A stretch of 64,000 nucleotides of DNA from a virus: IMG/VR virus record IMGVR_UViG_3300044730_000222, positions 1 to 64,000 of that record; one strand, 5' to 3'. Positions 16,613-51,496 of this stretch are shown in pieces (position 1 is the stretch's first letter; the number at the start of each line of letters is the position of its first letter). The position numbers and the translations under genes were made by a program. The notes under the pieces were generated by a model. The model saw nothing but the letters and a program-made list of their open reading frames with translations. It had not been told where the DNA came from and did not search any database.

Positions 16613-16659
16613 TGTTTTTGCCTTTCTGTCGGTCTGGCGGTTTGCCATTGAGAGAATTA

Positions 16660-16940
16660 AAGCCTAAATCTAGGCAGGGCGCAACTAGGCAGACCCCTAG
16701 ACTTTCAGCGTGTCGCAACCCCTAACCCTTAGCCCTAGACCTAGACCCCTAGACCCTAGACCTAGCGCAACGCCTAGCCCATAGGCAGACCCTAGACCTA
16801 GCGCCTAGCCGATAGGCAGACCCTAACCCCTGCCCCTAATTGGTAGCCCGTAGCCCTAGACCTTAGCCCTAGACCTTAGCCCGTAGCCCCTAACACTTAG
16901 ACCCTAGACCTAGACCCTAGACCTATGCTCAACCCTTAGC
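16660..16940. repeat. Degenerate 6-7 bp tandem repeat tract (CCTAGA / CCCTAG / CCTTAGC / CCCTAA)
   Basis: About 280 bp, non-coding, C-rich top strand, TAG or TAA every 6-7 bp. Confidence 0.9.
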
Positions 16941-16941
16941 C

Positions 16942-17007
16942 TGTGGATAACCTTGTTGATAACCCTGTGGATAAACCTAGCCTGTGGATAACTTTACCTG
17001 TGGATAA
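16942..17007 (-). promoter_or_regulatory. DnaA-box cluster (4 perfect TTATCCACA plus 1 mismatch)
   Basis: TGTGGATAA at 16942, 16966, 16983 and 16999; TGTTGATAA at 16954. Confidence 0.85.
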
Positions 17008-17010
17008 CTT

Positions 17011-17027
17011 TCTCAGGCAATTCTCAG
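17011..17027 (+). promoter_or_regulatory. TCTCAG-N5-TCTCAG direct repeat (MprA-type box)
   Basis: Exact hexamer repeat with 11-bp period, OmpR-family geometry. Confidence 0.4.
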
Positions 17028-17059
17028 GAAGTCCCTAAAGTGGGGAAATGGGGGCGCTT

Positions 17060-17168
17060 ATTTATGACAGATCAAAAAAAGCCCCTAATTTATGACGAGC
17101 AAAAAATTTTCCCAATTTATGAAAAGAAAAATTTGCTCCCTAATTTATGAGAGCAAATTATTTTTCCC
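17060..17168 (+). repeat. Four iteron-like units ATTTATGA-N14/15-CCC, period 27-28 bp
   Basis: ATTTATGA at 17060, 17088, 17115 and 17143, each followed by an A/T tract and CCC. Confidence 0.8.
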
Positions 17169-17176
17169 GATTTTTT

Positions 17177-17359
17177 TTATCTAACGGGGGCAGTTCCTTG
17201 AACATAGCCGTCAATAGATAAAACATCACAAGTAATTTTTACTCTTTGATTTTTCTTTAATGATTTCTTATAAAGATTTATAAAGTGATAAACATTTTCC
17301 TTAGTAGGTAAGTTCATCTCAAAAGTATTTCCGTTCATACTAGTTATTGTTATTTTCAT
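17177..17359 (-). CDS. Early hypothetical protein
   Basis: ORF track; AGAAAGG RBS. Confidence 0.7.
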   Translation of the reverse strand: MKITITSMNGNTFEMNLPTKENVYHFINLYKKSLKKNQRVKITCDVLSIDGYVQGTAPVR

Positions 17360-17483
17360 TTAATACCTTTCTTTTTTCTGTATCGGTTGCTTTATCATAC
17401 CCCGCAACACTTCCGTGTTTAATAATCCAAGCCTTGCGGAGTTTTTGTTCTTGCGAATAATAGTAATAAATAACGCTATTCAT
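17340..17483 (-). CDS. Early micro-protein (47 aa)
   Basis: Manual translation MNSVIYYYYSQEQKLRKAW...; TAATG coupling to the upstream gene. Confidence 0.55.
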   Translation of the reverse strand: MNSVIYYYYSQEQKLRKAWIIKHGSVAGYDKATDTEKRKVLNENNNN

Positions 17484-17593
17484 TAGGCTACACACTCGCA
17501 AGGTTCAACACCATAGTTATCTTCATCGCCGTAAAAAATAACGCCGTGTCCATAACACTCATCACAATTTATTCTTTCTATTGCGTTTATCAT
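17483..17593 (-). CDS. Early micro-protein, CxxCxGxG...CxC zinc finger (36 aa)
   Basis: MINAIERINCDECYGHGVIFYGDEDNYGVEPCECVA; AGAAAGGA RBS and own promoter. Confidence 0.7.
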   Translation of the reverse strand: MINAIERINCDECYGHGVIFYGDEDNYGVEPCECVA

Positions 17594-17613
17594 TTTTAGT
17601 TATCCTTTCTTTC

Positions 17614-17772
17614 TTAAAGTGTAGCAGGGGCTACTGACATAGCCTCTACTGTAAATCCGTTAGCCACTAGGCTTTCCATAAGGTCATTTATCTGACGCTC
17701 ATTTATCATCAACATGTTTGATGTTGTAAGTATGGTATCCTCTTTGGATACTGTGTAATTTAGTGTTAGCAT
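17614..17772 (-). CDS. Early micro-protein (52 aa)
   Basis: MLTLNYTVSKEDTIL...; AGAAAGG RBS and own promoter. Confidence 0.65.
   Translation of the reverse strand: MLTLNYTVSKEDTILTTSNMLMINERQINDLMESLVANGFTVEAMSVAPATL
17618..17639 (-). promoter_or_regulatory. PafBC/RecA-NDp-type promoter
   Basis: TGTCAG-tagcccctgc-TACACT. Confidence 0.75.
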
Positions 17773-17808
17773 TTTTTGCTACCTAACCTTTCTTTTTGTT
17801 ATACTGTA

Positions 17809-17830
17809 ATTCTATCTGTTGCCACTGACA
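17809..17830 (-). promoter_or_regulatory. PafBC/RecA-NDp-type promoter
   Basis: TGTCAG-tggcaacaga-TAGAAT. Confidence 0.8.
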
Positions 17831-17858
17831 TTTTGAGGGGTCTGTGGGGTATCGCCCC

Positions 17859-17874
17859 TGTGATTTACATCACA
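17859..17874. promoter_or_regulatory. CRP box
   Basis: TGTGA-tttaca-TCACA. Confidence 0.75.
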
Positions 17875-17979
17875 CTAGGAAGCGTAATACTCTAGGTAGC
17901 AACCTGAGCAGACGACACGCCCAGAAGTCATAACCTGAGTGTATTTTCTATCTAGTTCACAGATTTCACATTTTTTCAT
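17875..17979 (-). CDS. Early micro-protein, CxxC...CxxC (34 aa)
   Basis: MKKCEICELDRKYTQVMTSGRVVCSGCYLEYYAS; AGAAAGGA RBS. Confidence 0.7.
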   Translation of the reverse strand: MKKCEICELDRKYTQVMTSGRVVCSGCYLEYYAS

Positions 17980-18014
17980 TTTATCTGTTCCTTTCTTTAG
18001 TTTCTATACTGCGT

Positions 18015-18036
18015 ATTCTAGTGGATACCACTGACA
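18015..18036 (-). promoter_or_regulatory. PafBC/RecA-NDp-type promoter
   Basis: TGTCAG-tggtatccac-TAGAAT. Confidence 0.8.
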
Positions 18037-18074
18037 TTTTGGGGGATATTTAGGGCGTGTCGCCCTTTTATTTT

Positions 18075-18090
18075 TGTGACTTACCTCACA
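18075..18090. promoter_or_regulatory. CRP box
   Basis: TGTGA-cttacc-TCACA. Confidence 0.75.
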
Positions 18091-18188
18091 CTTTGTAGGG
18101 AATCTACACAATTTGGACAAATCGCAATAATGTTGCGTTTTGATACATGGGTGGTCTTACCACATAACTTACAATTTTTCTTACTCAT
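18081..18188 (-). CDS. Early micro-protein, CxxC...CxxC (35 aa)
   Basis: MSKKNCKLCGKTTHVSKRNIIAICPNCVDSLQSVR; AGAAAGG RBS. Confidence 0.7.
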   Translation of the reverse strand: MSKKNCKLCGKTTHVSKRNIIAICPNCVDSLQSVR

Positions 18189-18222
18189 TTTAGAACCTTT
18201 CTGTTCATTTCTTATACTGCGT

Positions 18223-18511: not shown

Positions 18512-18536
18512 ACTAAATAGAAAGGTAGGTCAGAAA

Positions 18537-18731
18537 ATGACTACACTAAATAAAACTACGATAGAAATCGTTTTAGAAAATGGTTTCAATATTCAGGATA
18601 AAATCTGCGTATTTTGCTCAAATACCCTTGATCGCTGGGATACTTTTTGCTTCCCTTGCCAAGAGTATAAAGGCGTGATGAAAGTCATAGACGCCGTTGA
18701 TTACTACGGAGTAGATATTCTAGGTGTGTGA
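18537..18731 (+). CDS. Early small Zn-finger protein
   Basis: CVFC...CFPC; AGAAAGG RBS. Confidence 0.7.
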   Translation: MTTLNKTTIEIVLENGFNIQDKICVFCSNTLDRWDTFCFPCQEYKGVMKVIDAVDYYGVDILGV

Positions 18732-18742
18732 GGCAAATCACA
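18727..18742. promoter_or_regulatory. CRP box
   Basis: TGTGA-ggcaaa-TCACA upstream of a TTGACT -35. Confidence 0.75.
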
Positions 18743-18829
18743 CTCCCCAAGCGTGGGTCTAATTTGACTTTAACGCTAAAAAATGAAATAATAGAATTAT
18801 TAGAAAGTATCTTAGAAAGGATAACTTAA

Positions 18830-19027
18830 ATGAAAACTTATTCAATTCCAGACTTGCTCGTGGGTCAAGTTTATTATCCACGCTCTCTCGCTCGTAAATA
18901 CCAATACGGCGAAATTAACTACGCTGAAAAGCGTGATGATATTTATTTTGCTGATGGCTATGAAGCCTACGCAATTCGCTTCAATGGTCATCGTTGGGCT
19001 ACTGTCGCAGTAAAGGTGGCAGACTAA
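18830..19027 (+). CDS. Early hypothetical protein
   Basis: ORF track; AGAAAGGA RBS. Confidence 0.7.
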   Translation: MKTYSIPDLLVGQVYYPRSLARKYQYGEINYAEKRDDIYFADGYEAYAIRFNGHRWATVAVKVAD

Positions 19028-19146
19028 TGAAATTAGATGAATTCAAGGCTCTTATTGAGAGCCAGCGTAAAGCGCAACAATTGACAAACTTAGAGAAAAT
19101 CGCTAAAATAGTATCAACAACAAATACCAAGAAAGGTAAAAACTAA
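19027..19146 (+). CDS. Early micro-protein (39 aa)
   Basis: MKLDEFKALIESQRK...; TAATG coupling. Confidence 0.55.
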   Translation: MKLDEFKALIESQRKAQQLTNLEKIAKIVSTTNTKKGKN

Positions 19147-19148
19147 AA

Positions 19149-19403
19149 ATGACTAACTATAAAGACTTTCCATTCACAACTAACGGCGTGAATTTTATTT
19201 CAAGAGTTTATTCTGACTCTCCATTTCTATCCACTATTGAGCGCCTGCCTGAAGGTGCATTTGCCTCACTAAATATTCAAGCACTAACAGAATTAGTGGG
19301 TGACGCTTCACTTCTAACTCATGATGAATTACTAATAGCACTAACTAAAATAAATGATGGTGGAACTCATGCGTTTATTCTACTAGATGAGGGGTCTAAC
19401 TAA
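19149..19403 (+). CDS. Early hypothetical protein
   Basis: ORF track; operon context. Confidence 0.7.
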   Translation: MTNYKDFPFTTNGVNFISRVYSDSPFLSTIERLPEGAFASLNIQALTELVGDASLLTHDELLIALTKINDGGTHAFILLDEGSN

Positions 19404-19594
19404 TGATGACACGCAAAGACTATGTCAAGACCGCTGAAATTCTAAAAGGTTTCAGCGAGGAAATTCACCCACAAGTTTTTGAGGATTTGGTAGAGGAGTT
19501 TTCTCAATACTTTAAATCTGATAATGATAGATTTGATTTCGCAAGATTTGAAAAGGCTTGCGGAATTGACGAATTGGGGTTGATTCCTGTATGA
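19403..19594 (+). CDS. Early hypothetical protein (MTRKDY...DN.RFD..RF..AC family)
   Basis: Motif common in phage early regions. Confidence 0.7.
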   Translation: MMTRKDYVKTAEILKGFSEEIHPQVFEDLVEEFSQYFKSDNDRFDFARFEKACGIDELGLIPV

Positions 19595-19838
19595 CAAATT
19601 TAATTTTAACTGTCGCAATAATTTCATTTGGAACTTTATTCGGAATGAGTTTAATTACTATGAGAAAATTAGAAATTGAAAATAAAAAATTGCGAAAAGA
19701 AAATGCTGAAATGAAATGGAATCAAATTAAAGTTTGATTAAGTTGCGTTAAAAATTTTTCCTGAAATTTCTTTATGATATTTTGGGAAAAACCCCCGCAA
19801 CATCGGGAGGTCCCGCACTCGGGCGTGTCGTCCACAGG

Positions 19839-19847
19839 TTATCCACA
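19839..19847 (+). promoter_or_regulatory. Perfect DnaA box inside an early promoter cassette
   Basis: TTATCCACA, with a degenerate copy 11 bp upstream. Confidence 0.65.
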
Positions 19848-19909
19848 GGGGGGCAATTTACGAAGGGTGTGATTTTTCCCACATTTTTTGGGCGTGTCTA
19901 ATTGGAAAT

Positions 19910-19931
19910 TGTCAGTAGAAAATGATAGGCT
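19910..19931 (+). promoter_or_regulatory. PafBC/RecA-NDp-type promoter
   Basis: TGTCAG-tagaaaatga-TAGGCT. Confidence 0.8.
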
Positions 19932-19961
19932 GGAAGCCTAAAAATGAAAGAAGGTAATCTA

Positions 19962-20459
19962 ATGGGATTAGATATGTATCTCTCTGCTAAGAAAAATGTA
20001 GAGAAAGTAAATTGGAAGGCTCTTAGAGATAATGAGGAATTATCCTATGAAAGTCCTGAAGTGATTAATCCGCTATGGAAAAATATTGTAGATGTTGCTG
20101 ATATGGCAGATGTTGCTACAGATATTTATGGCGTTAATGTTGAAGTGACTTGTGCTTATTGGCGCAAGGCTAATCAGATTCATAAATGGTTTGTTGATAA
20201 TGTTCAAGGCGGTAATGATAATTGCGGTGAATACTATGTGTCGCAAAATAAATTAGAAGAATTGCTAGCGCTAGTTAATAGAGCATTGGCAGAGCGTAAT
20301 CCTACTTTGCTATCACCACAAGGGGGATTCTTCTTTGGCTCTACTGATATTGATGAGTGGTATTGGCGTGATTTAGAAAATACCAAAACTAAGTTAGAGC
20401 GCATATTTGCTCTGCCCCAATTGTCCGATTTGTCCTTTTACTACTCTTCTTCGTGGTAA
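19962..20459 (+). CDS. Conserved phage early protein (MGLDMYL...YWRKANQIH.WF...GFFFG...YYSSSW)
   Basis: Recognisable widespread hypothetical family. Confidence 0.75.
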   Translation: MGLDMYLSAKKNVEKVNWKALRDNEELSYESPEVINPLWKNIVDVADMADVATDIYGVNVEVTCAYWRKANQIHKWFVDNVQGGNDNCGEYYVSQNKLEELLALVNRALAERNPTLLSPQGGFFFGSTDIDEWYWRDLENTKTKLERIFALPQLSDLSFYYSSSW

Positions 20460-20480
20460 AAGGGCGAGGGGATTTGAAAA

Positions 20481-20502
20481 TGTCAGCCCCCTATGATAGG
20501 AT
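20481..20502 (+). promoter_or_regulatory. PafBC/RecA-NDp-type promoter
   Basis: TGTCAG-ccccctatga-TAGGAT. Confidence 0.8.
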
Positions 20503-20532
20503 TTCAGTATGAACAGAAAGAAGGAAAGAAAA

Positions 20533-20751
20533 ATGGATAAATTGGAATACGCACTAAGTATTATTGCTAATTGTGTTTTATGTAATGGAAAAGGTTATCA
20601 GTATTGGGCTAATGGAGATGACTTTGATACTGAATCTTGTGAGTGTAATGTCTATGATATTATTCTTGATGATGACGGAGATGTAATTTGGGATAATGGT
20701 TTATTATCTCAAAATGAATTATCAATTTACGCAACAAGCGAGGCTAACTAA
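20533..20751 (+). CDS. Early CxxCxGxG...CxC protein, paralogue of 17483..17593
   Basis: NCVLCNGKG...SCEC. Confidence 0.7.
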   Translation: MDKLEYALSIIANCVLCNGKGYQYWANGDDFDTESCECNVYDIILDDDGDVIWDNGLLSQNELSIYATSEAN

Positions 20752-20752
20752 A

Positions 20753-21034
20753 ATGGGAAGTAATTTTGCTAATGATTTGGCTCTTGCTGATAACTTGGAT
20801 ATTGAAACTCAGATAGGAATACACCTATCTAGTAATCATTACCCACCCGTTCCTAGTTTTATGGTCAAGACTTGTATTGAGGCTATTGACGCAGTAAATG
20901 ACGCAGGGCTTTGGTACTTGGAAATACCTCTACCTGAAGGGGTATTCTATAAGGGTAATTTGACTACCGCACCAGCACACGCTATTATTGAACAACACCA
21001 CCTAGATTCGTGGCTTATTGAAAGGGAATACTAA
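20753..21034 (+). CDS. Early hypothetical protein (HL..NHYPP...HHL)
   Basis: Start moved to ATG 20753. Confidence 0.7.
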   Translation: MGSNFANDLALADNLDIETQIGIHLSSNHYPPVPSFMVKTCIEAIDAVNDAGLWYLEIPLPEGVFYKGNLTTAPAHAIIEQHHLDSWLIEREY

Positions 21035-21035
21035 A

Positions 21036-21245
21036 ATGGAATATAACTATGTCTTGACTACTGCGTATGATGGAGAATTATTCTCTACCATGCGCCTTAG
21101 CGATTTTATGGAAGCACACGAGGCTTGGGCTAAATGCTCAGACCACGGAAATGCTAAAGAATACGCAACCTATAATCTTACAGACCCAACAGGTAAAATG
21201 TTCACTAAAAACTTTTATTCTGATGGCAGAGTATCGGTTAAATAA
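21036..21245 (+). CDS. Early hypothetical protein
   Basis: GAAAGGG RBS before ATG 21036. Confidence 0.65.
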   Translation: MEYNYVLTTAYDGELFSTMRLSDFMEAHEAWAKCSDHGNAKEYATYNLTDPTGKMFTKNFYSDGRVSVK

Positions 21246-21473
21246 ATGTCTGCTACACTAACTTCTATGGATTACAGATTTGTAGATATTCTAAATGCTG
21301 ACCAATTAGAAGTAGGAGATCTAATTGGTTTAGGCATTATTGGAATTGTAAAAATTATTTCAACTACTCCAACTAAAGATGGATTCTTACTTGTAATTGA
21401 AAATGAATTTAATGAAAAAGAAGATGTTGAAATTTTAGATAATGAAAAATTTGAATTGTTTATTTTAGAATAA
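21246..21473 (+). CDS. Early hypothetical protein (small beta-barrel-like)
   Basis: ADQLEVGDLI motif. Confidence 0.6.
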   Translation: MSATLTSMDYRFVDILNADQLEVGDLIGLGIIGIVKIISTTPTKDGFLLVIENEFNEKEDVEILDNEKFELFILE

Positions 21474-21564
21474 AAATCCCCCGTTAAAAATCGGGACCTC
21501 CCCGCCCGATTTGTCCCTATTGTCCGATTTGATTTTTGTGTTATTTTATGATAAGATTTTATTT

Positions 21565-21696
21565 ATGTGGAAAAAAACTAGTAATGATTTACGAAGGCTA
21601 TTAGATTTACGAAGATCTAATGCTTCTCAGCCATTACGGAATAAGAAAAAATATTCCCGAAAAGTTAAGCACAAGAAAATTGACAATTCAGAATAA
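21565..21696 (+). CDS. Small basic protein (RRSNA...KKKYSRK.KH)
   Basis: Leaderless start after TGATAAGAT. Confidence 0.55.
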   Translation: MWKKTSNDLRRLLDLRRSNASQPLRNKKKYSRKVKHKKIDNSE

Positions 21697-21728
21697 AAAT
21701 GTTATTATGATATTAGAAAGGAAACCCC

Positions 21729-22448
21729 ATGAAACTAAAACGCTCTAATGATAGGAAGGTGGCTAATGCCGTATCAAAAAATGGAAAGACCGCAACAATT
21801 GCCAACACTTTTGGATTGCCTGCTGGAAAGGCTTACTCGTGCCCTGGTGCCACAAGTGTTTGTGAAAGTGTTTGCTACGCAGGAAAACTTGAAAAGATAT
21901 ACAAGGGAGTAAGAGATAATCTCCTTCATAACTGGAACCTGCTAAAAGACGCAGACCATGACACTATGGAAAACTTATTGCAAGATATGATTAATGACTT
22001 TAAGATTGATTGTGATAAGAAAGACGCTCCTAAACTATTCCGTATACACTGGGACGGCGACTTCTTTAATGATACTTATACTTTTGCATGGAAGCATGTC
22101 ATATTAAATAATCCTGATATTCAATTCTGGGTTTATACTCGTGTGGCTACCGCCGCAGATATGCTTAAAGATATAGATAATCTATCTCTCTACTTCTCAA
22201 CAGATAAAGAGAATAAAGATATTGCTATTAATCTTAATAAAGATAAGGGTATTCGATTAGCATACCTTGCAGATACCTTCGCAATTGGGCAGGCAGATAT
22301 GAAAGCAATGATAGGAAGACCTGGCGCTAAGTGCCCTGAAAACCTAAAAGCAATTCCGCTTATCTCTACTAATGGCTCTGCTTGCGTATCGTGTGGCTTG
22401 TGTATTTATGAGAAATCTGATATAGTATTTAGCGCAAAGAAAAAGTGA
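21729..22448 (+). CDS. GP88-family (radical-SAM-like Fe-S) phage protein
   Basis: CPGA...C...CYA, FRIHWDGDFF, FWVYTR and C..CGLC motifs. Confidence 0.75.
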   Translation: MKLKRSNDRKVANAVSKNGKTATIANTFGLPAGKAYSCPGATSVCESVCYAGKLEKIYKGVRDNLLHNWNLLKDADHDTMENLLQDMINDFKIDCDKKDAPKLFRIHWDGDFFNDTYTFAWKHVILNNPDIQFWVYTRVATAADMLKDIDNLSLYFSTDKENKDIAINLNKDKGIRLAYLADTFAIGQADMKAMIGRPGAKCPENLKAIPLISTNGSACVSCGLCIYEKSDIVFSAKKK

Positions 22449-22513
22449 GGGTAGAGTGGATAAAACAATATTATTCTTCATGGGCTTATGGATATTTATG
22501 TATCTATTTACCT

Positions 22514-22529
22514 TGTGATTAATATCACA
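22514..22529. promoter_or_regulatory. CRP box
   Basis: TGTGA-ttaata-TCACA upstream of TTGACA-N17-CATAAT. Confidence 0.75.
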
Positions 22530-22639
22530 AAGAATAAATCTCAAAATGTGAGATTTTTTAGATTTGGATTTGACAATAAATCTCAAAAATGTCATAATTA
22601 GACAGTAAGCAAAAACAACTAACGAAAGGAAATAAAGAA

Positions 22640-22804
22640 ATGGCAGTAAATACAGCACTATACAAGGTAGGCGATACTTATACTTCTCAGAAGTCTAAGA
22701 TTACAGGCTCTATCAAAGAAATCGTGCCAAACCCAAATGGTTCGGTTCGTGTCAAACTTGATGTTGAAGGCAAGACACGCTGGACAACTTGGAAAGCAAA
22801 GTAA
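22640..22804 (+). CDS. Early small protein, paralogue of 23404..23571
   Basis: YKVGDTYTSQKSKITG vs YRVGDLFTTSKTGITG; GAAAGGA RBS. Confidence 0.7.
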   Translation: MAVNTALYKVGDTYTSQKSKITGSIKEIVPNPNGSVRVKLDVEGKTRWTTWKAK

Positions 22805-22820
22805 TTCCTAATACAGGAAA

Positions 22821-22850
22821 AGACCTGAGCAAGTCTGCTAAAACTGCTCA
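22821..22850 (+). ncRNA. Small H-type pseudoknot motif, copy 1
   Basis: AGAC-CTGAGCAA-GTCT-GCTAAAAC-TGCTCA. Confidence 0.7.
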
Positions 22851-22907
22851 ACTTGATTTTCTATCATAGAAATGCTAAGATAGAACCCCATACAGAAAGG
22901 AAAACAA

Positions 22908-23330
22908 ATGGCTAGAAATGGCAAAAGTATAAATGTCAAGATTGCTACAACTAAAGTAATCAAGGCACTTGAAACTAAATTGGCTCAACTCCAAAAGGAT
23001 AAGGCTAATCAGAAAGTAAATGAGGAAAAGTTGCTGAAGGCACAAGAGAAGTATAATAAGGAAGTTGCTAAGTTAGCACTTGCTCAAATCTCTAAGGCAA
23101 CAGACTTATCTGCTAATGTTCGCTGGAACGGCGAAGTAAATGTTGATTTCAATTTACCAAAAGGTTCTATTGAATTACCTGAAATGCCTGAGAAAGATTT
23201 TGAGTCTTTCAATGATTGGCAATACAAGGAAATGGTAGATGAAATTGAAAACGCTATCCGTATCCTAAAGATGACAGATGAGGAAGTAGTTTCTACTTCT
23301 ACTTACAACACTATCGCAAGATACTTGTAA
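22908..23330 (+). CDS. Early coiled-coil protein
   Basis: ORF track; AGAAAGGA RBS. Confidence 0.75.
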   Translation: MARNGKSINVKIATTKVIKALETKLAQLQKDKANQKVNEEKLLKAQEKYNKEVAKLALAQISKATDLSANVRWNGEVNVDFNLPKGSIELPEMPEKDFESFNDWQYKEMVDEIENAIRILKMTDEEVVSTSTYNTIARYL

Positions 23331-23403
23331 TTCTATGGGGGAAGGGTATTTGACTTCCCCCCTAAAAAATGTTAAACTTGATTATCACAGAAAGGATAAA
23401 CAA

Positions 23404-23571
23404 ATGACCCTTGGAGGCTATACTTACAGAGTAGGCGATTTATTCACTACTTCCAAAACAGGTATTACAGGTCGCATTGAAAAGTTTGTGCCACAAACTA
23501 GAAATGTCACTAAGGTAATGCTACGCTTAGCAAATAACCAAACAAGATTTGCTATGGTAAAAACTTACTAA
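23404..23571 (+). CDS. Early small protein
   Basis: AGAAAGGA RBS before ATG 23404; TTGACT-N17-TAAACT promoter. Confidence 0.7.
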   Translation: MTLGGYTYRVGDLFTTSKTGITGRIEKFVPQTRNVTKVMLRLANNQTRFAMVKTY

Positions 23572-23576
23572 TAGAA

Positions 23577-23702
23577 TTGTGGCGGGTTTGAACTGTGTAA
23601 TCATCTAGATTCCCGCCACAACTTTTCTCTCCTGCGTTCATGGCAGATCTATCTGCGAAAGTCCCCTGGAGAGATTGTCCTGAGTATGACAATAAACTGC
23701 TC
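23577..23702 (+). ncRNA. Structured intergenic RNA ending in pseudoknot copy 2
   Basis: TTGTGGCGGG/CCCGCCACAA and TCTCTCC/GGAGAGA stems, then ATTGTC-CTGAGTAT-GACAAT-AAAC-TGCTC. Confidence 0.65.
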
Positions 23703-23734
23703 TTTAAAAATACCGCAAAAAATCGGGAGGCCCC

Positions 23735-23750
23735 TGTGATTATTCTCACA
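23735..23750. promoter_or_regulatory. CRP box
   Basis: TGTGA-ttattc-TCACA. Confidence 0.75.
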
Positions 23751-23845
23751 TGGCTGCGACACGCCGATATTTATTTACGAAGGAATTTGTATTTTTCCCA
23801 TATTTCTGCTAAACTTAATAGATAACCAACAGAAAGGAACGCCCC

Positions 23846-24127
23846 ATGATAGCAACCGCTATTAAATTACAAGAAGCATCAAGAGATGCAGTTCATGATG
23901 ACATGATAATGGAAATTGTCAAACACATTGTCAGTATTAGAGATGTAGTAGATGAAGAAAGTTTTATCAAAGAGATGTATAACTATTCCGCTATGCTCTC
24001 TGCTATGACAACAACTCTAGTTACTCACGCATTATTGACAGAGGAACAAATAAATGATATGCTGGAAGCCATTAAAGAAATGGATACAGTAGGAGAGGAA
24101 CTCTTAAATGAATACAGAAACAACTAA
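23846..24127 (+). CDS. Early hypothetical protein
   Basis: ORF track; AGAAAGGA RBS. Confidence 0.7.
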   Translation: MIATAIKLQEASRDAVHDDMIMEIVKHIVSIRDVVDEESFIKEMYNYSAMLSAMTTTLVTHALLTEEQINDMLEAIKEMDTVGEELLNEYRNN

Positions 24128-24572
24128 TGAAATAGTAGTGCCAGCACACTACAACCCTAATCAAATCGTAACCTATAAGATTATTGATTCTGAAGCACAC
24201 CAAGCAGACTATGCGAATTGGTATCCCACAGTAAAGGTTAGCGACCTTGAATATGAATTACACCAACACCGCAGAGAAAGACGGGAACTTAATAGATATA
24301 CTCAGCATGTAGGTATGTTAGAAAGTCGCCTACCTGATTACCTTGATATGGATTCAGAGGAAATCGTTGCTGATATTTGTAGTATCTTTGGATTTAATCC
24401 TACTAAGGAAATTCAATTTGAGGCTACCGCCACAATTACAGGAACAATATCAGTTCCGTTAGATGAAGTTGCTAACTTTGATGTTAGTGATATTGACTTA
24501 AATGTTTATGCTGAACTAAGTTCATATGACGGAGAAGCAGATGTTGAGATAGATAATATCTATAAAGTGTGA
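24108..24572 (+). CDS. Early acidic hypothetical protein
   Basis: ORF track. Confidence 0.7.
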   Translation: MNTETTNEIVVPAHYNPNQIVTYKIIDSEAHQADYANWYPTVKVSDLEYELHQHRRERRELNRYTQHVGMLESRLPDYLDMDSEEIVADICSIFGFNPTKEIQFEATATITGTISVPLDEVANFDVSDIDLNVYAELSSYDGEADVEIDNIYKV

Positions 24573-24587
24573 TAGTGGGGCTATCCA

Positions 24588-24615
24588 AGATCCTGGGCAT
24601 GATTTAAAACTGCCC
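24588..24615 (+). ncRNA. Pseudoknot motif, copy 3 (compensatory GGGCA/TGCCC)
   Basis: AGATC-CTGGGCAT-GATTT-AAAAC-TGCCC. Confidence 0.7.
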
Positions 24616-24753
24616 CTCGCAAAATTGCGGACCTCCCGCAAATTTTTTATTTTGTCAAATTTACGGCGTGTCGGGACAAATGATTAACAGGACTTGCTTT
24701 TATTAATCTTATATGTTAAACTTGAGATTCATAACTAATGAAAGGAAATAAAA

Positions 24754-25770
24754 ATGGCTCATGAATTAGAAACGCAAAATGGCGTTGCTTCTTTTGCTTC
24801 TTTTAGAGAACCTGCTTGGCACGGCTTAGGCACAGTTTTCACAGAAGAAAAAACAACAAGCGAAATGCTTGCTGCTGCTAATCTAAATAATTGGAATGTT
24901 AGATTGGTTGATGTTGAGATTCCAAACACTCTTACCTCAGACAAGAATTATTCTTATGTCGTAAGGACTAACCCTACTGAGAATAATCAGACAGATATTC
25001 TTGGTGTTGTAGGTGAGCGTTATCATGTTTTACAGAATGAAGATTTATTTTCATTCGGTGATAATATCCTAGATGGCGGTGGGCGTTGGGAAACTGCTGG
25101 CTCAATTCGTGGTGGGCGTGTAGTATTCGGCTCTCTTGCTCTTGAGCGTGAAACAGTATTAGACCCTAATGGTGTTGCGGATAAAGTAAAGACTTATTTA
25201 CTTATCAACACAAGCCACGATGGCTCAATTGCTATTCAAGCGTCAATAACACCCGTTCGTGTTGTATGCGCTAACACTCTCAATCTTGCTCTTGGTTCTA
25301 AGCGTGGCAAAAATGCTATCAAGCAATCATTCAAGATTCGTCATACACAGACCGCTAATGGCAAGGTTGCTATTGCTCGTGAGGCTCTTGGTCTTGCTAA
25401 TAAGTATATGGACGCTTTTGATATTATGGCTAAGGCTATGATTGAAAAAGAAATTACAGCGCAACAGTTCAATGATATTGTTCTCGCTGCTTATCCTAAG
25501 CCTGAGAAAGACGCTAAGGGCGCAATCAAAAAGTGGGAAAATAAAATTGATGTTATCAATGATATTTACACAGGGCAATTTAATGGAATGATTGCTAACA
25601 CCGCTTGGGGCGCTTTCAATGCTCTAACTGAACGCCTTGATTGGCACAGAAATGCTCGTGGTGGTTCTAACGAATCCCTACTCGCTGCTGCTAGTGGTTT
25701 TGACGCAACAATTACCGCAGAAAAAAATCGTCTGCTAAGTGTTGTAAAAAATACTTTAGAATTAGTTTAA
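24754..25770 (+). CDS. DUF932 (phage/plasmid-like, TIGR03299-type) protein
   Basis: REPAWHGLG, WETAGS, NTSHDGS, TPVRVVCANTL and TAWGAFNALTE motifs. Confidence 0.85.
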   Translation: MAHELETQNGVASFASFREPAWHGLGTVFTEEKTTSEMLAAANLNNWNVRLVDVEIPNTLTSDKNYSYVVRTNPTENNQTDILGVVGERYHVLQNEDLFSFGDNILDGGGRWETAGSIRGGRVVFGSLALERETVLDPNGVADKVKTYLLINTSHDGSIAIQASITPVRVVCANTLNLALGSKRGKNAIKQSFKIRHTQTANGKVAIAREALGLANKYMDAFDIMAKAMIEKEITAQQFNDIVLAAYPKPEKDAKGAIKKWENKIDVINDIYTGQFNGMIANTAWGAFNALTERLDWHRNARGGSNESLLAAASGFDATITAEKNRLLSVVKNTLELV

Positions 25771-25779
25771 TCTAATTCA

Positions 25780-25807
25780 ACTCCTGAGTAAGAGTATAAA
25801 CTGCTCA
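25780..25807 (+). ncRNA. Pseudoknot motif, copy 4
   Basis: ACTC-CTGAGTAA-GAGT-ATAAAC-TGCTCA followed by a T-tract. Confidence 0.7.
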
Positions 25808-25889
25808 ATTTTTTTTTGTAAAAAAATCCCGTGATCATAAATTAAAATTTGCAATTAAAAAAATGCGGACCTCCTTATAGGGAGGCCCC

Positions 25890-25905
25890 TGTGACCTACA
25901 TCACA
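25890..25905. promoter_or_regulatory. CRP box
   Basis: TGTGA-cctaca-TCACA. Confidence 0.75.
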
Positions 25906-25988
25906 AAATGAAAAATAGTATAACATTTCTTAAAATTTTCTATTACGAAGGATTTGATTTTTCCCCAGTTTTTTGCTAAAATTTATCT

Positions 25989-26207
25989 ATGACCCTAAAT
26001 GTAGAAATATATGAAATGGAATATTCTGTATCCCCTGGTGGAGTTGACTGCTGGGAAATGACTATTGGGAATAAATGCTATTCAGGTTTTAAAACTGCTG
26101 GACATGCATTGGACCACTTGCTAATTATGCACCCTTCTGATACCCTTGACTTATCAGTAACTTCACTTAATGTTTATTATAAAGAACTAGAAAGGATCCA
26201 ATGTTAG
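25989..26207 (+). CDS. Hypothetical protein
   Basis: ORF track; leaderless after TGCTAAAAT. Confidence 0.65.
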   Translation: MTLNVEIYEMEYSVSPGGVDCWEMTIGNKCYSGFKTAGHALDHLLIMHPSDTLDLSVTSLNVYYKELERIQC

Positions 26208-26362
26208 GATATACAGAAGAACAAATAAACAAAATGATGACTACTCTTAACTATACTATTCATCATCATATGACTGGTGTATTTGCAGATGAGGATAGAG
26301 CAGTGCTAAAAGATCTAGAGGACTTCTTAGAGGGATTAATTGCAGAAGGGCATGTGAGGTAA
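26201..26362 (+). CDS. Small hypothetical protein (MLGYTEEQ...EGLIAEGHV)
   Basis: Manual translation; AGAAAGGA RBS. Confidence 0.65.
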   Translation: MLGYTEEQINKMMTTLNYTIHHHMTGVFADEDRAVLKDLEDFLEGLIAEGHVR

Positions 26363-26368
26363 ATCACA
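26353..26368. promoter_or_regulatory. CRP box
   Basis: TGTGA-ggtaaa-TCACA upstream of TTGACA. Confidence 0.75.
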
Positions 26369-26531
26369 TTACGAAGACTTGACAAAGTCCCACATTTTTG
26401 AGAAAATTGGATTAAGAACAGAAAGGAAAAAATCGTGGAACACCAACACTACTGGGACACACCCAACACGACACAACTAGACCTAGTCGCACAATGCGCC
26501 TGCGGTGAAGAACTATTGAGGGAGACGGATA

Positions 26532-27254
26532 ATGCCTAACTGGTGTTATAACACTCTTTCTATAGAAGGTAAGCCTGAACTCATTGCGGATGTTAAGCGT
26601 ATGCTTAATAGACCATTTAAGAAATCTCATGATTCATGGAACATGGCTACAGGACAAATGGAAGTATCAGAAACCGCATACTCTAATCCTGTTTTTGCTT
26701 TTCATAATATATATAATCATATTCAGGACGGTGTCTCTGATGAGGAGTATCTAAAGCAACCTGACCATAGCCTACCATTAGAAGAATCTCTTATGTTCAA
26801 AGGCAACCATTGGTATGACTGGAATGTAAGAAACTGGGGAACCAAATGGGATGTAGCAATTAGACATGGTGAGGAGTATCCTGAGACTGAGTTAATGGAA
26901 GAAGATGAGACTTCTCTTTCATACCGTTTTAATACCGCTTGGTCTCCACCAGTGCCTGCTATTATCAAACTATCTGAACAGTATCCTGACTTAGATTTTA
27001 ATCTATACTATCAAGAAGAAACTGGTTGGGGTGGAGAAACAGAATTCAAAAATGGTTTTATTACTAATAGTGAAGAGTATGAGACTAAGTGTATGGATTG
27101 TGATTCATTAGATACCCTTGAATATTGTGACAATGATTGTGGTCAGATTTGTTCAGAGTGTAACTATATGGGCGAAGCAGACCTTGACCAAGTTGCGGAA
27201 TGTGAAGACCACAAGATATACTTAGACAACGTTCCTGAATACAGAAAGGTATGA
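26532..27254 (+). CDS. DUF1281/YubB ferredoxin-like fold protein
   Basis: MPNWCYN, WYDWNVRNWGTKW, F.TAWSPP motifs; Cys-rich tail. Confidence 0.8.
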   Translation: MPNWCYNTLSIEGKPELIADVKRMLNRPFKKSHDSWNMATGQMEVSETAYSNPVFAFHNIYNHIQDGVSDEEYLKQPDHSLPLEESLMFKGNHWYDWNVRNWGTKWDVAIRHGEEYPETELMEEDETSLSYRFNTAWSPPVPAIIKLSEQYPDLDFNLYYQEETGWGGETEFKNGFITNSEEYETKCMDCDSLDTLEYCDNDCGQICSECNYMGEADLDQVAECEDHKIYLDNVPEYRKV

Positions 27255-27255
27255 A

Positions 27256-27474
27256 ATGGAATCAGAATACATCAATAGAAAAGTTAAACTAATAGAATAT
27301 ACCAAACTACATGTTATTAGTTTAGAACAGGATTTGGAACAAATATCTATTGAAATGGAAGCATTAGATATGAACTCTAAAGATTGGGATGAGTTAGATT
27401 TTGAATATAATCATATGGGAGGACAGATTCTTTCTGCCCGTCATCTTTTACAAGTTATGGAGGAAATGCTCTAA
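27256..27474 (+). CDS. Small acidic helical protein
   Basis: ORF track; resembles the next gene (GQI/GQL). Confidence 0.65.
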   Translation: MESEYINRKVKLIEYTKLHVISLEQDLEQISIEMEALDMNSKDWDELDFEYNHMGGQILSARHLLQVMEEML

Positions 27475-27728
27475 TGGAAGAATATCTGCAGAAACAGGTA
27501 GACATGGGTAGTTCTGGTTTAGATATCATGCATGGGCACCTCAAAGTTCTAATGCTAGAGGCTGAACAAGAACTGGCGGAGGCACAAGCAATCGAAGATG
27601 AATCAGAAGAGGCTATGGATTCTATGGAGCGTAAGTATTGGGAAGGCCAATTAGACGCACTTGCTAATCTATATAGTTTGACATATGACTTGTCATTTGC
27701 CATTGCAGCCAAGGAGGCAGCAAAATGA
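27474..27728 (+). CDS. Small acidic helical protein
   Basis: ORF track; TAATG coupling. Confidence 0.65.
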   Translation: MEEYLQKQVDMGSSGLDIMHGHLKVLMLEAEQELAEAQAIEDESEEAMDSMERKYWEGQLDALANLYSLTYDLSFAIAAKEAAK

Positions 27729-28021
27729 AACTATATCAAATAGAACTAATTCATGAGGCTACAGGTGAGTACATGAATTTTGAATATACATCAGACGCAA
27801 AAAGCGATGACGCTGTCTGTTCTGAGATTCTGTCAGATCTATCTGTAGTTATTCTAAGTAAAGAGGATTTGACAGAGGAAGAGGAATTTGATACTATTAA
27901 AGCAAACCAACTACAGAAAGGTAGTGAAATGCAACACGAACATTATTGGGATACACCGTCAGACAAGTCACTCGTAGCAGAGTGTGCCTGTGGAGAACAA
28001 CTAGAAAGGGTTCAAGATTAA
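27725..28021 (+). CDS. Hypothetical protein, possibly with an internal start at 27929
   Basis: Internal TTGACA promoter and AGAAAGG RBS precede MQHEHYW. Confidence 0.55.
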   Translation: MKLYQIELIHEATGEYMNFEYTSDAKSDDAVCSEILSDLSVVILSKEDLTEEEEFDTIKANQLQKGSEMQHEHYWDTPSDKSLVAECACGEQLERVQD

Positions 28022-29029: not shown

Positions 29030-29700
29030 TGATATCGGGACCTCCGTATAGGGAGGACCCCATATTCAAACCATAAAACCTTTCAAACCATATTTTTTAA
29101 AAGACATTACGAACAAATCTAAAAAAATCCCAGAAGTTTATCAAATAAATTTTTATTTGTCAAATCAGATCTATATCCTATAGGTAGTATATGTAGTATG
29201 ATATGTTTTTTTGTATACCCCGCCGCAGGCGTGTCTGTTAATTTAGATAGACATTACGAACCGCCTCAAAGTCCCCCCCTCTGAACGGCCCGTAAAAGCG
29301 GCGGTATAAAAAACATTACGAACACCCTATATCTTTCCCCATATATACAAACCATATATACATTACGAAGGACATATATTTTTTCCTGGATTTTTAGAAT
29401 ATTTCCCATATGTTTTATAACTTTTTGTTATACTTTTCCACAGTTTTGGACAGGTTTTATAACATTTCTATATCAAATATTGAGACAATTTTGTCCATAT
29501 TGTGGATATAAATAGGTTTGACAATATGAATTTTATATGGTATAGGGTTTGGGAACTGGGTTGGTTTGAACTGCCAGTATTACGAACGCACTCTAGAAAG
29601 TGCTCCATTCCCCACTTTCCTCCATTTTCCTCCACCTATTTCCTATGATATTTATATCAGTAAGATTTTTCTGTGGATAAACCTGTGGATAACTATACAA
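29030..29700. promoter_or_regulatory. Non-coding control region with five (C/T)ATTACGAA repeats and DnaA boxes
   Basis: Repeats at 29105, 29252, 29314, 29361 and 29578; TGTGGATAA at 29672 and 29684; TTTTCCACA at 29434. Confidence 0.75.
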
Positions 29701-29728
29701 ATTTGCCTATATCTGCTATACTTTTTAC

Positions 29729-29944
29729 ATGCCTAGTCAACATACAAAATGGTTTAAAGATGATCGCCTTGTAAAGGCTCTAGATGATATGCGCCAACGC
29801 AATATGGAATTTATGTCCAAGTGTTATTATTGTGGCGCAGAAGCGGTAGCCATAAAATCTATAGGTGAAAGACTATATCCAGCCTGTGATATTCATCCAG
29901 GAGTAGATGAAGTTATTCAATCAGAATCTTTCTTTAAAGACTAA
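29729..29944 (+). CDS. Small Zn-binding protein
   Basis: CYYC...C..H; leaderless. Confidence 0.6.
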   Translation: MPSQHTKWFKDDRLVKALDDMRQRNMEFMSKCYYCGAEAVAIKSIGERLYPACDIHPGVDEVIQSESFFKD

Positions 29945-30156
29945 TTTTTAGGCGGTATACCCAAAGGCATATCCGTAACATTATCAAATGCCTCTTCACA
30001 TAATGGGCAATAGGAATTAGGCAATCTTCCACTTCTTAAAGTTGATCCACCCAATAATATCAAACCTGCTTCACTTAAATCCAAGGTCTTCTGGCTTACT
30101 ACTCCATAGACTATAGGTATTAGTTTTGTCTTACATCTAGTACATATACTACTCAT
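29941..30156 (-). CDS. Small Zn-ribbon protein (C..C...IPIVYG...LGG...C..C)
   Basis: ORF track; near-leaderless TGCTATACT promoter. Confidence 0.65.
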   Translation of the reverse strand: MSSICTRCKTKLIPIVYGVVSQKTLDLSEAGLILLGGSTLRSGRLPNSYCPLCEEAFDNVTDMPLGIPPKN

Positions 30157-30214
30157 ATAGGGTTAGTATAGCAGTTCTTGGTATACCGTGGTATTTTTTG
30201 ATATACCCCTTGAT

Positions 30215-30243
30215 TTGCATACTTGCCCATAGTTGTGTATAAT
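30215..30243 (+). promoter_or_regulatory. Sigma-A-type promoter of the sRNA
   Basis: TTGCAT-N17-TATAAT. Confidence 0.75.
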
Positions 30244-30250
30244 TGGATAT

Positions 30251-30358
30251 AGAAGGGCCTAGAAACCCTTCTCTCCCCTCCCTTTCTGGGGGAGCAAGTC
30301 GTCCCTCCCTTTCTGGGGATGCGCTCCTGAGCATGAGCGATAAACTGCTCATCTTTTT
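30251..30358 (+). ncRNA. Putative anti-Shine-Dalgarno sRNA: three hairpins (two CCCUUUCU loops), 3' pseudoknot copy 5, U-tract
   Basis: Promoter directly upstream; stems read from the sequence; no credible ORF. Confidence 0.7.
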
Positions 30359-30692
30359 ATTGTATAATGCCTTAATGCATTTACATAGATATTTAACAAA
30401 AGAACTAGGTAATAAGATCATATATTATTGCCAAAGATGTGGATGGGAAAAAGTAGTTGACATACCGCCCCCTACATGGGATAATTGAGGTATGAAACTA
30501 ACTAATGAATATATCAAGACAGAACTTATTAAGATCAATGAGTTATTAATATCAGGCTCTCTTCATGATGTAGATGAGGCTAGTCATATATCAGCAAGGT
30601 TAATAGGGGAACTTAGTTCTTCTTGACATACCGCCGACTTTCTGATACACTGAAAGCACGTGGATTATATATCGTAGAAAAGTGAGAATAAC

Positions 30693-31070
30693 ATGAATCC
30701 AAAAATGACAATCGTAGGGCGCTTAGGAAAAGATCCTGAAGCAATCGGCACATCAGGTGCTCGTTTTAGCGTAGTAACACAAGACCGTGTAAAAAATGAC
30801 AAGGGCGAATGGGAAGACCGTGACACTACTTGGCATAGCATTAAGGCTTGGAAAACGCTAGGACAACAGGCTCTATCTACTTTGAAAAAGGGTCAAGAAG
30901 TAATTGTTTATGGAACATTCAGTGCAGATGAGTGGGTTGATAAAGAAGGCCAGAAGCGTGTCACAAATGAGGTACACGCCGAAAGCATTGCCGTTACGGT
31001 ATATACTTTATCCAAGATGAACACAACTCCTGTCAATGATCCTTGGGTCAAGGAAACAGTAAACGCATAA
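30693..31070 (+). CDS. ssb: Single-stranded DNA-binding protein
   Basis: IVGRLGKDPE, LKKGQEVIVYG and W.DKEGQKR motifs. Confidence 0.9.
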   Translation: MNPKMTIVGRLGKDPEAIGTSGARFSVVTQDRVKNDKGEWEDRDTTWHSIKAWKTLGQQALSTLKKGQEVIVYGTFSADEWVDKEGQKRVTNEVHAESIAVTVYTLSKMNTTPVNDPWVKETVNA

Positions 31071-31321
31071 TGTTTGACGATGATGCTACTGAGTGGGAGA
31101 CGAGGCGTATTGATAACTCTCGTCCCCCACTTCGGTGGATAGCAAATCTAGCAGGACACTTTGCATCAGGTGCAATGGTCCGTATGTTTAATAGAGAAGA
31201 AGATGGAATAGATTCTTCTTTTGGATATGAAGTAGATAAAATTATCTGGGACAAACTTTGGCCTATTTATGAAAAATATGGCACGGTATATGAAATGAAG
31301 TTTGGAGAAGATTATGAATGA
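31070..31321 (+). CDS. Hypothetical protein
   Basis: TAATG coupling to ssb. Confidence 0.6.
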   Translation: MFDDDATEWETRRIDNSRPPLRWIANLAGHFASGAMVRMFNREEDGIDSSFGYEVDKIIWDKLWPIYEKYGTVYEMKFGEDYE

Positions 31322-31529
31322 ACAAGAACTAAGAGATAAGATAGCAAAAGAAATTCAAGACTTTGATTTAAGTGAGGGTAGCAATATTCATTTAAATGCT
31401 TTAGGTATGAAAATGATTGCTGTAGACATAGCAAAAGGAAAGTAATAAACCATATTGCCCCGCAAAGGGGCAAATGGTGGTTTTATTGTTCTATTTTGCG
31501 CCGAACTTTAATGCTGTTATAATCAAATT

Positions 31530-44916: not shown

Positions 44917-45186
44917 TCATCGTATAACCTCTCTAGTTACTAACACAATAGCACCCTCCATCTCTAAAGCCTTTTTTACCATAGCAACGTATTTCACTGC
45001 GTCTAGTTTTTCATCATGACTCATATGAATAAAAGACCTTTCATCTAGTTTTATCGTAATAAAAGCCCCATTGTCAATAAGATCAACACCGAAATTTTTG
45101 GGTGCAGATATAGAATGAAAAGCCCTACGCATATCATTTGTATACACAATTACTCCATTGTTAATGCTTGCCAGGTATAAGACCAA
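44917..45186 (-). CDS. Hypothetical protein
   Basis: ORF track; true start probably at VYTNDM. Confidence 0.6.
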   Translation of the reverse strand: MVLYLASINNGVIVYTNDMRRAFHSISAPKNFGVDLIDNGAFITIKLDERSFIHMSHDEKLDAVKYVAMVKKALEMEGAIVLVTREVIR

Positions 45187-45431
45187 TCTTTTTTAGTCTT
45201 ATGATTGTTAAACTCTTTAGATATTTCTCCGCTTTCTAGATAAATACCGCCCCAAACGCCCCACTCTTTACCAGACACACCAACAGCAAAACATTGTCTT
45301 GCTACTGGGCATGTTCTACAAAGAGCATCTACAAATTCTCTTGACTCTAAATTTTCTTCATAGTTATCAAAAAATATATTTGTGTCAGATCCAAGACATT
45401 CAGCATTATCTTTCCATAAATGCTGTTTCAT
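45150..45431 (-). CDS. whiB: WhiB-family Fe-S transcription factor
   Basis: W...A.C, FF, C..CPV...C and GVWGG motifs. Confidence 0.9.
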   Translation of the reverse strand: MKQHLWKDNAECLGSDTNIFFDNYEENLESREFVDALCRTCPVARQCFAVGVSGKEWGVWGGIYLESGEISKEFNNHKTKKDWSYTWQALTME

Positions 45432-51419: not shown

Positions 51420-51420
51420 G

Positions 51421-51492
51421 AGCCTCCTATAGGATTTGAACCTATGACAACCCGCTTACAAGGCGGGTACTCTACCCCTGAGTTAAGGAGGC
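51421..51492 (-). tRNA. tRNA-Thr(UGU)
   Basis: GCCTCCT/AGGAGGC acceptor stem; CCCGC-CTTGTAA-GCGGG anticodon arm; GGTTCAAAT T-loop; no encoded CCA. Confidence 0.92.
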
Positions 51493-51496
51493 AAAG

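Follow-up and report, generated by a model that had tools for sequence, protein, structure and literature searches.

A conserved phage RNA gene with two identical seed loops complementary to the ribosome-binding tag of a block of the phage's own genes

Lytic phages are known to time their gene expression with proteins, among them sigma factors, RNA polymerases, RegA and RegB. In phage T4, RegB is an endoribonuclease that cuts GGAG and RegA is a translational repressor. To our knowledge, actinobacteria are without Hfq-type chaperones. Among small RNAs, the closest described systems are the following. NfeR1/α-r14 silences mRNAs with three identical CCUCCUCCC motifs carried on dissimilar stems (PMC10746234), and the actinobacterial 6C sRNA silences mRNAs through C-rich loops, with no known chaperone (PMC6486639). 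In the wider α-r14/cuckoo group (NfeR1, CcsR1–4; PMC10746234, PMC8034643), redundant seeds occlude the ribosome-binding sites (RBSs) of many mRNAs. The phage RNA described here resembles this group in displaying the same unpaired motif of anti-Shine–Dalgarno (anti-SD) type on hairpins with dissimilar stems. The α-r14/cuckoo motif is CCUCCUCCC, the anti-SD core, whereas that of the phage RNA is the terminal CCUUUCU; the former RNAs are chromosomal, stress-regulated and alphaproteobacterial and lack a pseudoknot module, whereas the latter is phage-encoded and has as its obvious targets the phage's own gene class. With 6C/B11 (PMC6486639) the phage RNA shares an actinobacterial setting and two C-rich loops suited to purine-rich RBSs, but the 6C loops are C-runs for G-rich sites, whereas the phage loops contain three or four C plus UUUCU (CCCUUUCU) for a putative AGAAAGG target. 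Furthermore, 6C is host-encoded, whereas a family model of the phage RNA finds no host-encoded counterpart in 141 genomes of the candidate host order (a single 21-bit match covers the pseudoknot only). No Rfam family, including 6C, ar14 and CcsR1, matches the RNA at the gathering threshold or at E ≤ 10, and BLAST of an 800-nt region against 50,697 GenBank phage records returned no match. The T4 RegB/RegA shut-off shares the proposed logic, in that early messages are inactivated via their ribosome-binding sites, but its agents are proteins and here the agent would be an RNA. We regard the phage RNA as a putative multi-seed anti-SD sRNA of a known kind, new in being phage-encoded and apparently aimed at its own gene class. 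The assertion of the first-pass annotation that no such phage system has been described holds among the papers that could be searched, which include none on a phage anti-SD sRNA.

The window analysed here comprises the first 64,000 nucleotides of one phage contig of 101,845 bp, whose G+C content is 37%. The RNA gene within it is predicted to encode a transcript of ~110 nt, running from 30250 to ~30360 on the plus strand, and consists of the following elements.

30215–30243 (+): promoter, with −35 box TTGCAT (30215–30220), a 17-nt spacer and −10 box TATAAT (30238–30243), from the sequence and a promoter scan
30251–30272 (+): hairpin 1, AGAAGGG (30251–57) with CCCUUCU (30266–72), from the fold and the alignment; probable 5′ cap hairpin
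30273–30294 (+): hairpin 2, CUCCCCU (30273–79) with GGGGGAG (30288–94), loop CCCUUUCU (30280–87)
30300–30321 (+): hairpin 3, CGUCCCU (30300–06) with GGGGAUG (30315–21), loop CCCUUUCU (30307–14)
30322–30351 (+): H-type pseudoknot, S1 CGCUC (30322–26) with GAGCG (30335–39) and S2 UGAGCA (30328–33) with UGCUCA (30346–51); loops L1 C, L2 U and L3 AUAAAC
30352–30362 (+): U-rich tail UCUUUUUAUUG, a probable terminator tract (terminator-like match)

The promoter is near-consensus, and the tail reads CUUUUUAUUG at 30353–62. Hairpins 2 and 3 have unlike stems but the same loop, CCCUUUCU, so that the seed CCUUUCU lies twice within an 8-nt loop. The minimum-energy structure given by RNAfold contains these hairpins (−41.7 kcal/mol, z of −2.97, with one of 200 shuffles as good), and both seed loops are predicted to be unpaired with a probability of 0.90–0.95. 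The promoter, three hairpins, twin loops, pseudoknot and U-tract reported in the first-pass annotation are therefore all present as it described them. The bare 8-mer CCCTTTCT is not enriched in the window (three copies against 2.1 expected); what goes beyond chance is its placement in two adjoining loops and its conservation in relatives. Open reading frames that cross the locus at 30243–30488 (+) and 30149–30421 (−) were considered as coding and rejected, since the stems covary and relatives show a 23-nt difference in hairpin 1; a coding reading is excluded because the length differences of hairpin 1 are not multiples of three. The 5′ arm of hairpin 1, AGAAGGG, equals the early-gene tag AGAAAGG (see below) minus one A, and its 3′ arm, CCCUUCU, equals the seed minus one U; relatives with two seed hairpins mostly begin with (U)AGAAGG as well. 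This AGAAGGG could be an internal target mimic or merely a favoured transcript start.

To collect relatives of the RNA, viral and metagenome contigs were scanned with patterns three times, and the neighbouring SSB protein served as a further query. The resulting family comprises 38 sequences, 36 of them distinct, all from lake or other freshwater samples. Thirty have the two-hairpin architecture (hairpin 1, two seed hairpins, pseudoknot and tail), and the remaining eight (type B) are without hairpin 3 and have one seed hairpin followed by UUUCCUCUCC, the pseudoknot and the tail. In a model-based alignment, 93% of the cells at paired positions can pair, compared with 81% in shuffles (none of 500 shuffles reaches 93%), and 91 cells are changed on both sides of a pair against 32 expected, with compensatory changes in nine pairs; sliding the partners by one to three columns leaves at most 14 double-changed cells. 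A MAFFT alignment built without the model gives the same picture. In hairpin 2, 99.6% of cells are paired and four of the seven pairs show compensatory changes, with stem variants CUCCCC/GGGGAG, CUACCC/GGGUAG, CGCCCC/GGGGCG, CAUCGUC/GGCGAUG, CUGCCC/GGGCAG and CUCCGC/GCGGAG; in hairpin 3, 99.5% are paired and two pairs show such changes. S1 and S2 of the pseudoknot also covary, and hairpin 1 is highly variable, measuring 19–45 nt. The plus strand is taken as functional because the frequent U–G and G–U pairs would be A–C mismatches on the other strand. The loop core CCUUUCU is invariant in all 38 sequences; in each of the 30 two-hairpin members this includes the loop of hairpin 2, which was left out of two of the scans' search patterns. 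Two relatives reached via the SSB protein alone (L133 and L137) also carry the seed. The seed is thus constant while the stems around it are rewritten, the combination of loop conservation and stem covariation that the first-pass annotation had proposed to look for in relatives. Two further relatives linked by SSB (L135 and L136) have no RNA nearby and almost no tags.

Every relative has a promoter of the form TTGACA/TTGCAT-N17–18-TATAAT/TATACT at the same distance from the RNA. Which gene follows the RNA depends on the relative, and in each case a separate −10 box stands at the spacing expected of a leaderless start. We conclude from the RNA's own promoter and the varying downstream gene that the RNA is an autonomous unit and not the leader of one gene. 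By these comparisons the RNA gene is conserved, structured and promoter-driven, and its hairpins are not chance features. In most relatives the tail contains (C/A)CUUUCUGU, a third seed-like copy. The sequence after the pseudoknot is CCUUUCUGU in most relatives and complements the commonest form of the tag, ACAGAAAGG; this match is given less weight because the GU there also abuts the next promoter.

The gene 3′ of the RNA begins 13 nt after the tail. It is a conserved leaderless ORF of 37 residues (MHLHRY...CQRCGW...; 30375–30488, plus strand) that starts 6 nt past a TATAAT box at 30363–30368, and MHLH.Y homologues lie behind the RNA in L003, L005, L006, L010, L137 and others, although not in all relatives. 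On the other side, a divergent gene for a 71-residue zinc-ribbon-like protein (CxxC...CxxC; 29941–30156, minus strand) has its ATG 7 nt past TGCTATACT and is apparently leaderless; many relatives have the same divergent pair of −10 box and ATG upstream of the RNA. PHROG annotation places SSB, ferredoxin-like and glycosyltransferase genes after the RNA, and on either side of it shows no clean early and middle modules. The RNA and the genes behind it have promoters of one and the same ordinary type. Seven RNA-labelled runs match parts of 29500–31500; contigs from four such runs include none that spans 30237–30571, although contigs cannot show absence. Further along, a promoter TTGACA-N17-TACACT occupies 30623–30651; in two studies, metatranscriptome contigs that extend into the SSB gene have their starts just past it, at 30673 and 30678, a weak hint that this promoter is in use.

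The proposed targets share a tag, AGAAAGG, in front of their start codons.

16621–18202 (−): six AGAAAGG tags, 6–14 nt before the start codons of divergent small genes (proposed targets)
18519–28009 (+): twelve AGAAAGG tags, 5–12 nt before the start codons of small early-region genes (proposed targets)

The window has 24 copies of the motif where 10.2 are expected, and none of 100 shuffles reaches 24. Eighteen of the 24 copies are placed as RBSs, 5–14 nt before start codons, and all 18 fall within 16.6–28.1 kb, where the tagged genes diverge around 18.3 kb. In rough gene calls, 13 of the 33 genes in this block are tagged, compared with none of 136 elsewhere in the 102-kb genome (Fisher 6e-11); genes without the tag have GGAGG-type sites or are leaderless, in the latter case with TATAAT 6–7 nt ahead of the ATG. 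The tags lie in G-poor, C/A-rich leaders, usually after a pseudoknot. We call the tagged genes early from their position and size only. The RNA gene sits 2 kb beyond the end of the tagged block, and in relatives it is always just downstream of such a block: on the strand of the RNA gene, the 137 kb upstream contain 79 tagged ORFs and the 195 kb downstream 17, and the opposite strand has 11. The pairing of CCUUUCU with the RBS of the early region, as claimed in the first-pass annotation, is borne out at the level of complementarity, the seed being the exact complement of AGAAAGG, which has 18 RBS-placed copies in this block and none elsewhere in the genome.

Three further sets of features lie in the phage genome.

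7404, 13677 and 14381 (−), 21565 and 31530 (+), and 97454 of the genome (−): probable leaderless genes, with a TATAAT-like box 6–8 nt before the ATG and no SD
45150–45431 (−): WhiB-family gene, 49.7 bits, above the Pfam cut-off
51420–51567 (−): tRNA-Thr(UGU) and tRNA-Gly(GCC), side by side

WhiB proteins and leaderless genes are typical of actinobacteria, and WhiB is a marker of actinobacterial phages. Since the phage encodes WhiB and has leaderless genes, its host is probably actinobacterial. Its structural genes mostly have GGAGG/AAGGAG sites. The same pseudoknot occurs beside tRNAs on a contig of a metagenome-assembled genome (MAG) labelled Nanopelagicales, and GGATCACCTCCTTTCT is present in 19 of the 61 genomes searched from the order of that MAG, compared with none of 61 for a reversed control. 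The 16S gene of one such genome reads ...CACCUCCUUUCU followed by AAGG, and that genome has a G+C content of 35.6% (from a 237-kb contig), close to the 37% of the phage. As read from these genomes, the 16S rRNA of the probable host ends in the heptamer CCUUUCU. The mimicry of an actinobacterial 16S 3′ end suggested by the first-pass annotation agrees with this identity. Because CCUUUCU forms the last 7 nt of 16S rRNA it is the exact complement of AGAAAGG, and the tag would be an SD sequence that uses that terminus only. Consistent with this, position +8 of the tags is A in 72% and G in 4% of cases (4 of 111 sites, window and relatives); the avoidance of G there indicates that the tags stop short of the CCUCC core and pair with the extreme 16S terminus only. 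In 237 kb of one genome of the candidate host order, AGAAAGG precedes three of 234 long ORFs, so that the tag looks like a phage-private signal and not a common host SD, and the further suggestion of the first-pass annotation that AGAAAGG-led host mRNAs, which look rare, are silenced is weak.

The flanks of the tags were compared between 111 distinct tagged sites in RNA-bearing loci and 141 sites in loci fetched for the pseudoknot alone; the latter include at least one locus (L034) whose contig has the RNA at another place. C occupies position −1 in 50% of sites in RNA-bearing loci and in 21% of controls (Fisher 2e-6), position +7 is G in 25% and 6%, respectively (Fisher 2e-5), and position −2 is A in 73% and 65%; the RNA-bearing phages are kin to one another, so these sites are not phylogenetically independent. 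These two flanking bases, C at −1 and G at +7, are complementary to the ends of the loop C-CCUUUCU-G. Neither is predicted by pairing with 16S rRNA, which would call for U, if anything, at −1 and for A at +7. In these comparisons the tag flanks of RNA-bearing phages extend the match to the loops and not to 16S rRNA. RNAduplex energies for the whole RNA show a weak contrast (−18.4 versus −15.9 kcal/mol, p = 0.01), to which we give no weight because the calculation ignores the RNA's own structure.

The pseudoknot is not confined to this RNA. Four further copies, each after a hairpin at the end of a gene, are found in the window.

22821–22861 (+): pseudoknot copy
23674–23705 (+): pseudoknot copy
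24588–24619 (+): pseudoknot copy
25780–25811 (+): pseudoknot copy

One of them has a compensatory S2 (GGGCA/UGCCC) and two have A in place of U in L2. The consensus comprises S1 as N-N-U-C/G-A-N-N, which covaries freely, S2 as UGAGCA/UGCUCA with GGGCA/UGCCC variants, L1 as C, L2 as U and an A-rich L3. At least 119 viral loci contain the fold, often in two to four copies each, as do at least 119 loci in bacterial genomes of many phyla; Saccharibacteria (many), Clostridia, Aminicenantes, Thermodesulfobacteriota and Actinobacteria are among the matches listed. The bacterial copies usually start 7–13 nt past a stop codon and sometimes lie just before a tRNA. The fold is absent from Rfam, and BLAST with the 36-nt pseudoknot as a query gave marginal matches only. 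The RNA's own copy has no ORF in front of it, which implies that its action would be independent of a terminating ribosome; our guess is that its role is in 3′ end formation or protection.

The nearest published fold is the coremin motif (xrRNA-C) of plant and fungal RNA viruses, a compact block to enzymes that move along RNA (PMC10520033). Both have a short hairpin closed by ..UC/GA.. and then a spacer with (G/A)UUAAACU; the published coremin reads GUCCGAAGACGUUAAACUAC and many copies of the present fold GUCC-UGAGCAU-GAC-GUUAAACU-GCUCA. The first hairpin of coremin has 4 bp and a YGAD or YGNNAD loop, a rule from which the 8-nt loop here, CUGAGCAU, departs. The coremin spacer GUUAAACUAC has (G/A)UUAAACU in common with the present fold, the remainder of which pairs back into the loop. 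The loop pairing past the spacer makes this a true H-type pseudoknot with no second hairpin, and it is found in the DNA genomes of bacteria and phages. An HDV-like theta ribozyme (PMC10879173) was considered and rejected on topology, as it needs a nested double pseudoknot, P3/P4 and a catalytic C in J4/2; there is no room for P3 because one nucleotide separates the 5′ strand of S2 from the 3′ strand of S1. Rfam gave no HDV match.

Two other settings of the pseudoknot were noted. On bacterial MAG contigs from several phyla, a tiny ORF (M-K-R/K-F-x-x-P-R-x-A-H-C-x-E/S-G-C and approximately three more residues) lies directly before it in a fixed frame (L206, L209, L218, L221, L223, L232, L235, L249, L255, L262, L267, L269 and L272); it ends at the UGA within the conserved UCCUGAGCAUGA or at a stop just before UCC, and the genes upstream are unrelated housekeeping genes (SerRS, UvrC, peptidase C26, DUF72 and prismane). 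In other freshwater phages (L051:3334–3402 and similar), a hairpin with a pyrimidine loop (UCUUCU) directly precedes the pseudoknot, and the leaders downstream are C/A-rich with no SD; another phage group may here have arrived at a solution of its own.

The locus has the attributes of an sRNA gene: its own promoter and a terminator-like 3′ end, no ORF and an open conserved seed with class-specific complementary tags. With about even confidence, we propose that it encodes a trans-acting, 16S-tail-like sRNA that occludes the ribosome sites of early genes. Transcription from its own promoter would yield an independent RNA of ~110 nt, in which the 5′ hairpin and the 3′ pseudoknot with its U-rich tail would frame two open-loop CCUUUCU hairpins. 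Either loop could base-pair with AGAAAGG tags, as could the third copy in the 3′ tail of relatives. The paired RNA would then compete with the 30S subunit and lower the translation, and perhaps the stability, of the tagged class, and genes with GGAGG-type sites or leaderless starts would be unaffected. What this scheme takes by inference is that the RNA is made, that it pairs with the tags in vivo, and when and in which direction it acts. Several observations count against occlusion. The predicted duplex is only 7–9 bp and is thermodynamically equal to the competing SD/anti-SD duplex; since the loop and tag would form the same duplex as the 30S subunit does, the RNA would be a competitor and would have to be abundant, which is plausible, if unproven, given the near-consensus promoter and very small cells. 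The seed is invariant, so that the family offers no covariation between seed and tag, which would be the strongest comparative test. Finally, the genes after the RNA form no clean 'middle' module.

The same pairing might have another outcome, namely control of mRNA fate through recruitment or blocking of RNase E/J or processing of the polycistron, or else protection or activation. All of the loop–tag pairing evidence applies equally to these outcomes, and regulated processing of early transcripts is suggested by the tagged leaders, which usually come after a pseudoknot and C/A-rich spacer; nevertheless, the seed spans the ribosome-binding site itself, the classic geometry of occlusion, and neither a nuclease site nor an activating rearrangement is identifiable, so that we consider an effect on mRNA fate unlikely.

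Still less probable, in our estimate, is a decoy of the 16S 3′ tail, in which the CCUUUCU copies would titrate a protein that binds the 16S tail or pyrimidine-rich single strands (candidates are a host abortive-infection anti-SD nuclease, a 3′-end maturation RNase or ribosomal protein S1) and thus protect ribosomes or favour leaderless translation. The anti-SD CCUCC core is not kept in the loops, which have an extra C, and its 5′ part is buried in stems that change freely; moreover, RNA–RNA pairing, and not a decoy, accounts for the tag flanks and for the conserved siting of the RNA next to the tagged block. A decoy would fit the identity of the seed with the 16S terminus in genomes of the candidate host order, the many leaderless genes of the phage and the several relatives that have CCUCCUUUCU or CCCUUUCU straight after the pseudoknot, resembling a free 3′ tail, but no candidate partner was found, and ribosomal protein S21, sought as one, is absent from the phage genome.

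A cis-acting element, in which the hairpins and pseudoknot serve as a leader, a terminator or a put-like processive antiterminator controlling read-through downstream, is suggested by the location between gene blocks and by the U-rich tract after the pseudoknot with the next gene only 13 nt on. We think it quite improbable, given that the downstream gene differs among relatives, each time with its own −10 box for a leaderless start, and that termination needs no exact 7-nt loop repeated two or three times. That the hairpins are functionless stacked terminators whose loops resemble an anti-SD by chance, as the lack of enrichment of the 8-mer in the window might suggest, is scarcely credible against 36 distinct variants with an invariant seed, covarying stems and a promoter each.

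If occlusion by a 16S-tail-like sRNA is correct, an RNA that imitates the anti-SD tail to shut off a class of phage messages would be a new phage regulatory principle and would account for the unusual and uniform ribosome-binding tag of the early genes. In the fullest form of this reading, which we offer as a tentative possibility somewhat short of even odds, the phage would write its early genes in a private code, a tag for the last 7 nt of 16S rRNA, and later outcompete that tag with an RNA copy of the 16S tail, giving an RNA-only, class-wide switch from early to later expression built from reusable modules, namely the seed hairpins and a universal coremin-like pseudoknot cap. The tag and the RNA would together make a compact orthogonal translation switch for actinobacteria. 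Few uncatalogued small RNA folds are as widespread in phages and bacteria as the pseudoknot itself, and the present RNA indicates that this fold works without an upstream ORF.
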